A stretch of 22,016 nucleotides of DNA from assembly GCA_964373695.1 (NCBI GenBank), contig CAYJVT010000013.1, positions 1 to 22,016 on the forward strand, read 5' to 3'. Under the pieces are notes generated by a model, which did no database searches, had not been told where the DNA came from, and was given only the letters and a program-made list of their open reading frames with translations. The stretch comes from an uncultured archaeon (GTDB taxonomy: Archaea > Aenigmatarchaeota > Aenigmatarchaeia > GW2011-AR5). Every line of letters starts with the position of its first letter. The first letter of the stretch is position 1. The position numbers and the translations under genes were made by a program. Shown one piece after another: positions 6,383 through 22,016 of this stretch.

Positions 6383-7017
6383 CGCGTTTCATGCTTCACG
6401 GCGCCCCTTATCTCGTCAGCGCTCCCGAAATCATTCACCACGATAGGAACGTATTCATAGCCCGGAAGCATCCAGGACCTTCTTCTGGCCTCCTCTTCTG
6501 TAGGCACGACATCAATTATCTTCCTGCCCACAACGGCATCAACCTGCAGGAACTGGCCGTCGCATGCCCGGACATATTTCTTCCACCTGAATTCCCCTCT
6601 GCCGCCAAGAGCACGGTAAAGCGCGTCCTCGCCGTCCTCCTCGGTGACGCCCCTCGGATAATGCCTTGCCGTCCTCTCTTCATGCAGAATCCTGCGTTCA
6701 TGGACGACTAACGGGTATTCAGCCACATATTCACGGACGAGCGGTGCAGGATAAAATACAGGCTGCGGCACGGCTTCGTAGCTGCTGAAATCAATGTGAA
6801 GCCTTCCCGTCGTAAAATGCCCGCCAAAATAAGTTCCGCTGAACGGAATTCCGCGCCGTACGATAATCATGTCGCCTGCATAGCCGAAGGGTATATAGTT
6901 TCTATGAACCCACCCGCCCGGCGCCCGAATCTGGCATGCAAACTGCGCGTCTGCTTCCCCGGCTGCCAACGCAAGAACAGAAGCGCCTATGCCGGCCAGT
7001 GTCGACATTCTTCCCAT
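6379..7017 (-). CDS. Hypothetical protein with a possible N-terminal signal peptide
   Basis: 212-aa ORF; N-terminus MGRMSTLAGIGASVLALAAGEADAQ has a hydrophobic core and an AxA-like cleavage motif; its stop overlaps the rad50 stop. Confidence 0.6.
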   Translation of the reverse strand: MGRMSTLAGIGASVLALAAGEADAQFACQIRAPGGWVHRNYIPFGYAGDMIIVRRGIPFSGTYFGGHFTTGRLHIDFSSYEAVPQPVFYPAPLVREYVAEYPLVVHERRILHEERTARHYPRGVTEEDGEDALYRALGGRGEFRWKKYVRACDGQFLQVDAVVGRKIIDVVPTEEEARRRSWMLPGYEYVPIVVNDFGSADEIRGAVKHETR

Positions 7018-7124
7018 AAGAATAAGACGCGATAAATCTTCTTAATAGCAGAAAACAACGATTTTGGGACGTTATCTGCAAAGACCGAAGGTCTTTGATA
7101 TCAAAGCATTCGCATACCATGGAT

Positions 7125-7315
7125 TATAGTGAAACAATAAAATAATACCGGCATTATAGCTTGTTTCACATATATAGTGAACCAAATAAATAAACAGGAT
7201 ATAACTTATTTGGTTCACATATAGTGCCCAAGAAAACTAATAATTATGATTGTTTTCTTGGAGCACTATAGTGCCCAATGATATAATATCCTTTTTATTT
7301 CATTGGAGCACTATA
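7125..7315. mobile_element. Two nested copies of a TA-flanked double-hairpin MITE-like element (outer 7127-7174 + 7271-7313; inner 7175-7268)
   Basis: Four ~50-nt imperfect inverted repeats TATAGTG...CAC(A)TATA start at 7125, 7173, 7220 and 7267. Junctions CACATATATAGTG and CACTATAGTG are exactly what insertion of one TAGTG..CACTA unit into the central TATA of another, with TA duplication, predicts. Confidence 0.7.
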
Positions 7316-7377
7316 AAGCCACGCTCATATTATGAATGCTTATGATTTATGCAAAATGCTATAAGAATAGCGCAAAA

Positions 7378-7491
7378 CTACTTTTTTGACGAATTCATCT
7401 TCTGCTTGCACGCGAAACATATGACGCCTTTCGCCCTGTCAACGAGCCTTATCTTCTTGCACAGGGAGCACCGAGAAATCGACAGTTTCAT
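7378..7491 (-). CDS. Zn-ribbon microprotein, 37 aa
   Basis: MKLSISRCSLCKKIRLVDRAKGVICFACKQKMNSSKK*: two CxxC pairs; AT-rich TATA-like tract upstream near 7510-7520. Confidence 0.65.
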   Translation of the reverse strand: MKLSISRCSLCKKIRLVDRAKGVICFACKQKMNSSKK

Positions 7492-7532
7492 CACTATAAT
7501 TATTACATCCGGTTTGATATAAAGTTATAAAG

Positions 7533-9416: not shown

Positions 9417-9545
9417 GTTATCACTGCATTAATTTGCACGGAAAATTTATTAAGGCAAGACCCCAATTACGCCGGAATCACGCCGAAACCCCGCTTAACC
9501 TGTTGAATGACTTTAAGTAATTTCTTGGATAAAGCCATTAACATC

Positions 9546-14332: not shown

Positions 14333-14428
14333 TATAGTGAAACAAGCAAATAAACAGGATATGATTTGCTTGTTTCACATATAGTTCCAAAGAAAAGTAT
14401 ATATTGAATCTTTTCTTTGAGCACTATA
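14333..14428. mobile_element. Third copy of the TA-flanked double-hairpin element (core 14335-14426)
   Basis: TA-TAGTGAAACAAGCAAAT-AAACAGGATATG-ATTTGCTTGTTTCAC-A-TATA-GTTCCAAAGAAAAG...CTTTTCTTTG-A-GCACTA-TA; colinear with 7173-7270 and sharing the loop AAATAAACAGGATAT. Confidence 0.7.
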
Positions 14429-14429
14429 A

Positions 14430-15326
14430 TCATTCATATAGAAATTTATAATTCTTCTTAATGGCTCTGAAAAGAAAGTCAGTAATCATTCTATAATTCT
14501 CATCATTCCCTTTCCTCACAGACTTTATGTAATTATTTCTGTCCTTTACACAGATATTAACCTCAGGATAATTGTTTTTCTTGAGTATATAATTCATGAG
14601 AAGGCGTGAAATTCTTCCGTTTCCGTCTGTAAATGGATGTATGGTAACGAATTTCATTGAAAATAGTATTGCAAGCTCAAAAGGATGTATATTCTTGTTT
14701 TTCTTGTACCATTTCATTAAATTGTGCATTAATTTAGGGATTTGGGAATGCTGAGGCAACTTGACATCCGAGCCTATAGAAACTCTGACTTCCCTGTATT
14801 TCCCTTTTTTATCATCTATATTGTTCATTATAATGCTATGCAACTTTAATATTATTTTCTCATTTATATCGCCTCTATAGCGAGAAAGAAATTCAAGAGC
14901 TTCTTTATGGTTTTTTGCCTCATTGACTTCCCTGAGGCTTGTGTTTTTCGGTATTATGTTGTCGTTTATTATCATGGAAGTTTCCCTGAGGCTGAGGGAA
15001 GTCCCTTCTATGGCGTTTGAATTATAAGTAAGCTCTGTGAAGAACCATTCCATGAAGCGGCTTTGGGCGGCTTTGCCACCTTTTTTCGAATATTCGTCAA
15101 ACTTCAACTTTATTTCTTCTATCTGCCTGATTTGTTCCCTGTCAAGATATGAATGTTTTACAAGATTTTTTTCGAAAACGGCCTTTTCCATTTCTATAGT
15201 TTCTTTCGGCAGATTTCCCTTCCCTATATACTTTCGTATCTTCTTCCAGCCTCCGTTATGCCTTATATTTTTGACTAGATAAAAATACCTCTTCTTCCCT
15301 TTTCTCTTGACTTCTATATATGCCAT
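14430..15326 (-). CDS. fic: Fic-domain AMP-transferase with an N-terminal beta-rich basic (putative DNA-binding) domain
   Basis: Canonical HPFTDGNGRISR; internal inhibitory-type SNAIEG motif; N-terminus MAYIEVKRKGKKRYFYLVKNIR. Start 15326 is preferred because TTTAAATA lies about 22 nt upstream. AT-rich. Confidence 0.9.
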   Translation of the reverse strand: MAYIEVKRKGKKRYFYLVKNIRHNGGWKKIRKYIGKGNLPKETIEMEKAVFEKNLVKHSYLDREQIRQIEEIKLKFDEYSKKGGKAAQSRFMEWFFTELTYNSNAIEGTSLSLRETSMIINDNIIPKNTSLREVNEAKNHKEALEFLSRYRGDINEKIILKLHSIIMNNIDDKKGKYREVRVSIGSDVKLPQHSQIPKLMHNLMKWYKKNKNIHPFELAILFSMKFVTIHPFTDGNGRISRLLMNYILKKNNYPEVNICVKDRNNYIKSVRKGNDENYRMITDFLFRAIKKNYKFLYE

Positions 15327-15335
15327 GAATCTATA

Positions 15336-15375
15336 TACGGGCACAAATATTTAAAGACAAAAATATGTGCCCGTA
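15336..15375. promoter_or_regulatory. Inverted repeat enclosing the fic TATA box (candidate operator)
   Basis: TACGGGCACA (15336-15345) and TGTGCCCGTA (15366-15375) form a perfect 10-bp IR around TTTAAA at 15350-15355. Confidence 0.6.
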
Positions 15376-21827: not shown

Positions 21828-21875
21828 AAGAAGTCTAGTTCAAAAGCCGTTATAAGCCTTTCAACAGGCGGTTCT

Positions 21876-22016
21876 GTCAACGGCCACCGCCTTCAGGCGG
21901 CGGCTTGTCTGCAAAAGAGCTTTGGTTTTCATACATTTGTGCATTCAAGTGCAACAGGTTTGTTGAGCACATGGCAGACTGAAAGTCTGCCTGTGCCGGA
22001 AGAGCACAGTCCCCAA
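21876..22016. mobile_element. IS200/IS605-superfamily terminal hairpin with adjacent structured sequence (candidate omega-RNA); element continues off the right edge
   Basis: GTCAAC-G-GCCACCGCC-TTCA-GGCGGCGGC-TTG (21876-21907) matches the GTCAAC...hairpin...GCTTG end pattern of TnpB/IscB elements. Further stems: GGCAGACT-GAA-AGTCTGCC (21973-21991) and CTGTGC-n7-GCACAG (21991-22008). Confidence 0.6.

Follow-up and report, generated by a model that had tools for sequence, protein, structure and literature searches.

Duplication of a TA dinucleotide is the hallmark of the IS630/Tc1/mariner superfamily, and MITEs derived from IS630 include the RUP elements of Streptococcus pneumoniae, attributed to IS630-Spn1, and the SM-type MITEs of Sulfolobus. 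The Correia elements (CREE/NEMIS), which are known only from Neisseria, pair end to end through 26-bp repeats, and the nested Stowaway and Tourist MITEs of plants, which are TA-targeting and of Tc1/mariner type, insert into each other. Units made of two hairpins are represented by REPINs and BIMEs (REP doublets, RAYT) and by the PATEs of IS200/IS605, whose single-stranded DNA hairpins are recognised by HUH transposases and which generate no target duplication. Archaeal MITEs are on record from Sulfolobus, Halobacterium, Haloquadratum and Desulfurococcus, and the Aenigmatarchaeota (DPANN) are absent from the review that covers them (PMC10969869). Our search of the literature found no description of the unit family analysed here, nor of any MITE from Aenigmatarchaeota.

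In this work we analyse a double-hairpin unit encountered in a 22,016-nt stretch of DNA (hereafter, the window), which constitutes contig C13 of a Ca. Aenigmatarchaeota MAG (assembly G000; 1.02 Mb, 60 contigs, 48.6% G+C). Like RUP and SM-type MITEs, the unit is small and non-coding, is present in many dispersed copies, shows TA duplication and carries repeats copied from an IS630 element, the transposase of which would act in trans. It departs from them in having an inverted partial copy after each end repeat, so that the strong pairing takes place within halves, and also in its at least four co-resident subfamilies, its compensated stems, the shuffled combinations of its two hairpins (A and B) and its DPANN host. 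With Correia elements it shares units of about 100-150 bp, TATAG-type tips, TA at both ends, a mostly intergenic location and a host genome without an assigned transposase, but the two have no sequence relationship and here the parent insertion sequence (IS) is identified in relatives. The two hairpins per unit and their conserved bulges recall REPINs, BIMEs and PATEs, yet in this case the hairpin arms are duplex repeats of an IS630 element and the four Y1 genes examined lack matching flanks. Stowaway and Tourist elements differ from the unit in being eukaryotic, longer and paired end to end.

Reading and folding of positions 7125-7315 confirmed the four strong hairpins, in the order A1-A2-B1-B2 (7127-7313), that had been described in the initial annotation of this DNA. 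The segment consists of TA, A1, TATATA, A2, TATA, B1, TATA, B2 and TA, and its layout is TA-TAGTGAAACAA..TTGTTTCACATA-TA-TAGTGAACC..GGTTCACATATAGTGCCCAAG..GGAGCACTA-TA-GTGCCCAATGA..GGAGCACTA-TA. Folded as single-stranded DNA, it forms exactly four hairpins with an energy of -44.2 kcal/mol, which was matched by none of 200 shuffled sequences (-13.2 +/- 2.9 kcal/mol; z = -10.9), and the pattern TAGTG-N(30-50)-CACWATA has four matches against 0.00 expected. Both the MFE and the centroid folds place the pairing inside each half, and not end to end as in Correia elements. The A-TATA-B plan that had been proposed for the unit is borne out by the single un-nested copy of the window, a unit of subfamily F3 at 14335-14426 (plus strand) with the plan TA-TAGTG-A-CACATATAGT-B-CACTA-TA, its flanking TAs lying at 14333-14334 and 14427-14428. 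This copy is located between an XPD-type helicase gene and a Fic-domain gene and is 98% identical to that at C4:7375-7466 of the same assembly; downstream of the helicase gene, conservation with the congeners G001 and G002 is lost. The neighbouring Fic/DOC-domain gene (14430-15344, minus strand) is not found at the orthologous place in either of them.

The A-A-B-B array is an F2 unit nested in an F1 unit. The left half of the outer F1 unit (7127-7174, plus strand), which contains hairpin A1 and the central TA-TA, was delimited by its fold and by its 96% identity to the left halves of un-nested F1 units (C1:78927, C4:7764, C4:45276 and C3:27379). Its right half (7269-7313, plus strand), made up of the duplicated TA at 7269-7270 and hairpin B2 with the end CACTA, is 98% identical to un-nested F1 right halves on C3, C1 and C4. 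Between them lies the inner F2 unit (7175-7268, plus strand), a 94-nt element with the structure TAGTG-hairpin A2-CACATATA-hairpin B1-CACTA that shares 97-99% identity with the un-nested copies of C47, C1, C27, C8, C45 and C9 and has a fold energy of -26.9 kcal/mol (z = -10.6). The TA at 7173-7174 is the target of the inner unit, and the target duplication of the outer unit is the TA at 7125-7126, repeated at 7314-7315. In un-nested units the centre reads CAC-A-TA-TA-GTG and in the nested copy CAC-A-TA-TA-[TAGTG..CACTA]-TA-GTG, that is, one unit and one extra TA. The junction arithmetic put forward for the entry of one unit into the central TA of another, with duplication of that TA, consequently holds.

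The same order of hairpins might have been generated if single hairpins had been duplicated locally or by slippage, or had inserted independently of one another, with no entry of one unit into another. Every hairpin of the array does have TA at its borders and inverted TAGTG/CAC(A)TA tips, and a solitary B does exist at C41:5603-5653. However, the two A hairpins come from different subfamilies, and so do the two B hairpins, and the number of TAs over the two junctions is that of one unit plus one TA. Furthermore, the outer pair A1+B2 occurs un-nested, as an intact adjacent pair, at five other loci of the assembly (C1:78930, C3:27336, C4:7721, C4:45278 and C57:2874), and the inner pair A2+B1 at seven or more (C1:74848, C47:2228, C8:4981, C45:812, C9:12154, C27:9171 and C2:53524). 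Since each pair is found un-nested elsewhere, the nested insertion can be taken as real and local hairpin duplication as excluded; as a whole, we deem the alternative highly improbable.

The nest extends to a third layer. The F1 unit resides in a 127-nt host element, TAGCAG...ATGCTA (7046-7124, TA and 7316-7361), which it entered at GGAT-TA-AAGC, another T-TA-A site. Host element and nested units add up to a composite of 316 nt (127 + 93 + 96) at 7046-7361 (plus strand), with TAA on either side (7043-7045 and 7362-7364). Contig C30 of G001 lacks exactly this block, displaying the empty site CTTCT-TAA-GAATAG against the filled CTTCT-TAA-[...]-TAA-GAATAG, and the target duplication of the host element is ambiguous between TA and TAA. 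A second copy of the composite was located at C3:55493-55812 of G000, with 97.8% identity and within a 322-bp shared repeat; 84 and 47 bp of its flanks are identical to those of the window copy and the nested part is identical at both loci. The composite has evidently been moved or copied as a block to a second locus. The copy on C3 is the only other copy of the host element in the genome, and an exact 22-mer search of metagenome and genome collections found no host-element allele without the F1 insert. The ends of the host element are not significantly similar to IS630 repeats (2761/3000 and 1123/3000 shuffles equalled them), and short matches to its internal hairpin, CAAAGACCGAAGGTCTTTG, occur in G001. 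On one side of the composite is a conserved 38-aa zinc-ribbon ORF (7378-7494, minus strand), on the other a 212-aa ORF with its start at 7017. The 38-aa ORF, just upstream of the insertion, has two zinc-ribbon-like CxxC pairs, and the 170 nt around it (7362-7531) show 90-92% identity to G001, compared with about 77% for neighbouring genes; it is probably the gene of a conserved small protein.

The genome-wide search suggested in the initial annotation, carried out here as a regular-expression scan followed by an nhmmer profile scan of the whole assembly, revealed many further copies. G000 contains some 20 full-length units (91-94 nt), another 10 or so cut by contig ends and a few degenerate ones; these roughly 30 small, non-coding copies are spread over at least 25 contigs. 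They form four subfamilies (F1 to F4) that are distinct in stem sequence, with F2 copies being 97-100% identical within the genome. A search of 40 related genomes detected the family in 21 of them (22 of 41 with G000 included): of the 24 that belong to the taxonomic family of G000, 19 have it, and it extends to two further families of the order. In these relatives the A and B types appear in new, shuffled combinations. Units are mostly intergenic and have TATA-rich ends. At three loci (C1:78930, C4:45278 and C10:22421), in-silico removal of the unit and one TA produces open frames of 739, 335 and 249 aa, respectively, as if the insertions had interrupted genes; in a Pfam search of the frame halves at these loci no single domain was split in two. 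The assembly also holds a rearranged copy (C2:18073-18198), in which the 5′ arm of A is inverted and 33 unrelated nt precede its 3′ arm, followed by an intact B.

To analyse target duplication, the surroundings of elements in G001 and G002 were compared with the corresponding flanks in G000. Seven independent loci were identified at which the congener has x-TA-[TAGTG..CACTA]-TA-y and G000 has x-TA-y with a single TA, the context of these empty sites being mostly T-TA-A. One of them, at 9539-9540 of the window, is an unoccupied TA exactly where G001 carries a 92-nt unit: contig C30 of G001 reads AAAGCCAT-TA-[TAGTG..CACTA]-TA-ACATCCCAG and the window AAAGCCAT-TA-ACATCTCAG. Orthologous sites with a single TA had thus been correctly predicted, and the postulated TA duplication is supported alike by the seven filled and empty comparisons, by the TA found on both sides of all 14 cleanly parsed G000 copies and by the nested junctions. 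At least one insertion (C4:7375) is common to G000 and G001 at an orthologous place, from which it follows that some copies predate the split of the two species. Formally, an arrangement of TA, element and TA also fits site-specific insertion beside a TA without duplication; the T-TA-A preference seen on both sides favours a palindromic duplex target.

A Pfam search for DDE_3 returned the domain in 5 of the 41 genomes of the related set. Neither DDE_3 nor a match to the 355-aa transposase of G007 (P0001) was found in G000, G001 or G002, assemblies that are 76-91% complete and in which many contigs end in repeats. The statement that the window encodes no cognate enzyme is hence correct, and extends to DDE_3 genes across G000 at that completeness. 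The IS630 copies of G004, G026, G015 and G028 were considered as parents and rejected, as their repeats differ (e.g. GTACTATGACAA in G004). Transposases with matching ends, which the initial annotation had proposed to look for, were found in G007, G207 and G224. The G007 protein scores 118.6 bits for DDE_3 (cut-off 28.6) and contains HTH_33, HTH_32 and HTH_29, and a phylum-wide search with it (371 genomes) yielded homologues in G207 (69% identical) and G224 (two, 61-63%). The IS is exactly 1124 bp long in G007, in G207 and in both copies of G224, with the bounds T-TA-TAGCTAACC...GCTAGCTA-TA-A and T-TA...TA-A flanks in all four.

The ends of the unit were then compared with the repeats of this IS by ungapped identity over 34 positions, using 20000 shuffles as reference. 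The left end of F4 agrees with the left repeat of G207 at 27 of 34 positions, with a common 16-mer (AAAGAATCTGGACATG), and the left and right ends of F1 agree with the left and right repeats of G224b at 25 and 23 positions, none of these values being reached in 20000 shuffles. Similarity at the right end is weaker in some subfamilies, as in F3, with 18 of 34 positions, equalled by 719 of 20000 shuffles. The IS-carrying genomes themselves contain matches to the unit (25 in G207, 11 in G007 and 6 in G224). In G207, the left ends of its own MITEs share 26-31 of 34 positions with its own IS repeat, including the TAGTT tip, and BLAST pairs MITE positions 1-31 with that repeat. Among the IS630 lineages compared, repeats match only in that of G007, G207 and G224. 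In terms of the hairpins, the 5′ arm and loop of A correspond to the left repeat of the IS, and the loop and 3′ arm of B to its right repeat. Given that the ends of the unit are collinear with the IS terminal repeats, the unit is very probably a non-autonomous MITE of this IS630 lineage of Aenigmatarchaeota. The original reading of the unit as an archaeal MITE with ends of the IS630/Tc1-mariner type therefore stands, on the strength of its many copies, its TA duplication and the homology of its ends to the repeats of the 1124-bp IS.

The IS itself has no inverted partial copy after its repeats. In an analysis of the stems of 32 distinct copies from several genomes, canonical pairs occupied 92% of stem positions in A and 96% in B, and several positions showed two or three different Watson-Crick pairs; when the 5′ arm was combined with the 3′ arm of another copy as a control, 81.5% of positions were paired (maximum of 85-87% over 500 permutations). 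Both hairpins are kept by compensatory changes, for which a duplex-binding transposase offers no explanation. The compensation may result from selection, acting either on the ability of so short an element to transpose or on an RNA, or the units may have arisen repeatedly, through fold-back repair, from different IS variants. The latter would explain why the repeat core of F4 is that of the G207-type IS (GAATCTGGACATG) and that of F1 the G224b type (AATACCGACAT). The unpaired A of hairpin B, present in 32 of 32 copies, is simply a repeat nucleotide missing from the inner arm.

Covariation in both stems is also what commends a different reading, in which the host selects the hairpins chiefly as a structured RNA or regulatory module (a terminator, transcript stabiliser or promoter donor) and their spread is secondary. 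The persistence of the family across many genera, the insertion that G000 shares with G001 at an orthologous site, the TATA-rich ends and the mostly intergenic location would all agree with such a function. Set against these points, no Rfam family was found in the whole window at gathering thresholds, units occur in both orientations relative to neighbouring genes, their presence differs between congeners at seven or more sites, long open frames reappear at three sites once units are removed in silico, and the IS630 repeat core is conserved in the loops too, not in the stems alone. We accordingly view a primary host role as very unlikely, and retain the interpretation of the unit as an IS630-derived MITE.

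The strong pairing within halves had led to the suggestion of a hairpin-recognising recombinase or transposase, which is not sustained by our results, as arms and loops turn out to be the terminal repeats of a conventional IS630 DDE element present in relatives. In its most explicit form, this explanation would have a hairpin-recognising HUH/Y1 transposase mobilise the unit in single-stranded form, either as a minimal IS200/IS605 derivative (PATE) or as a REP/RAYT-like doublet, and insert it next to a TA without duplicating it. The unit does possess two terminal hairpins with compensatory changes and a conserved asymmetry in the A of hairpin B; TA, element and TA can be accommodated by non-duplicating insertion; and Y1 (HUH) transposase genes exist in G000 (C52:1333-1746, 98.9 bits for Y1_Tnp) and in nine other genomes of the set. 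Yet nothing similar to the unit was found when the element profile and tip motifs were searched beside four Y1_Tnp loci, including that of C52, so that the expectation of a Y1-type transposase flanked by A- or B-like hairpins was disappointed at these loci. The palindromic T-TA-A flanks are common to the IS630 copies, and on large G006 contigs stretches of a few kb hold copies of both orientations intermixed, unlike the strand-biased insertion of IS200/IS605. Collinearity of arms and loops with duplex IS630 terminal repeats largely refutes movement by a HUH enzyme, to which we assign little probability. An IS607-type serine recombinase integrating a circular form via a TA crossover would likewise leave TA at both junctions, and the observed junctions are compatible with such a 2-bp crossover site, but it does not account for inverted-repeat ends homologous to IS630 repeats and appears extremely improbable. 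All in all, an IS630-type mover remains the preferred reading.

A hairpin-rich repeat at the end of the window (21875-22016) matches both ends of C52, a 3.6-kb contig with the Y1_Tnp (IS200/IS605-type) gene, as well as the ends of C44, C31, C28, C6, C35 and C12. It is likely, judging from these matches, to be the end of another, assembly-breaking mobile element.

The initial annotation had further inferred that the unit, by bringing its own target site along, builds nested arrays. One insertion of a unit into the centre of another is upheld, but the generalization was overstated: across G000 and about 390 kb of relatives' loci there is one A-into-A event (with copies on C13 and C3) versus 60 normal centres. 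The central site, A-TA-T/G, differs from the preferred T-TA-A. Of the 49,886 TA sites in G000, about 60 lie in element centres, and one nested hit in about 25-30 insertions exceeds the 0.03-0.04 expected, albeit as a single event. Some further hint of a somewhat favoured site comes from around one fifth of the copies in relatives, together with those on C53 and C37 of G000, in which A and B are separated by one to four small hairpin modules, and from a G000 copy with a third TA in its centre. A 52-nt module in the centre of some relatives' copies, found mostly inside such centres, is either a nested insert or ancestral. In long variants (L044 on G001:C33, L041, L089, L093/L094 and G000:C53:2380-2620) the modules measure about 20-25 nt each, some of them forming 50-nt T-shaped pairs bounded by TA, and their stems vary with compensation. 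That copy, at C10:22421-22514, has a centre, CACATATATAGTG, with three TAs instead of two; excision of a nested unit would give this third TA by leaving its TA duplication behind, and slippage of the TA would do so as well.

The comparisons above establish the copy number of the unit, its TA duplication and empty sites, the order of nesting and the homology to the IS repeats, and these results can be assembled into a scheme of origin and movement. The outer ~30 nt on each side of the unit are the left and right terminal inverted repeats of the IS, and behind each of them its outermost 10-15 nt recur in inverted orientation; hairpins A and B arise in this manner, with the two halves meeting at TATA. 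An IS630-type DDE transposase acting in trans, putatively that of the 1124-bp IS in view of the shared repeats, would bind the duplex repeats and cut and paste the unit, and the target TA, preferentially in T-TA-A, would be duplicated on insertion. At the array, an F1 unit was the first to insert, into the TTAA of a 127-nt element of another kind, followed by an F2 unit at the second TA of the F1 centre (7127-7313), after which the whole 316-nt composite reached its second locus. Points that speak against the scheme are the lack of a DDE_3 match in the incomplete assemblies G000, G001 and G002, despite the 97-100% identity of the F2 copies in G000, the compensated hairpins and the weaker right-end similarity of some subfamilies.

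A more speculative extension, which we consider rather unlikely, is that the hairpin at each end is not incidental, being required as a cruciform or regenerated by fold-back, and that the TATA centre is a preferred landing pad. A unit of 92 bp might be too short for its two repeats to be brought by bending into a single transposase complex, and might rely on a cruciform extruded at either end; alternatively, fold-back repair after excision may have regenerated the double-hairpin architecture again and again from different IS variants. In either case the centre, where inverted tips abut around TATA, would be favoured by this and other TA-targeting mini-elements.

The unit is a well-documented IS630-derived MITE, a familiar kind of selfish DNA, and our analysis provides a documented IS-MITE pair for Aenigmatarchaeota, with clean pairs of filled and empty sites, three levels of nesting and a composite that moved as a block. 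The family breaks the assemblies of these genomes of about 1 Mb, in which many contigs end inside copies, and marks places of difference between congeners. In these genomes, intergenic hairpins should not be taken for RNAs or regulatory sites until units of this family have been masked or annotated. The wider interest of the family lies in the presence of a compensated hairpin at each end of an element that would be moved by a duplex-binding DDE transposase.
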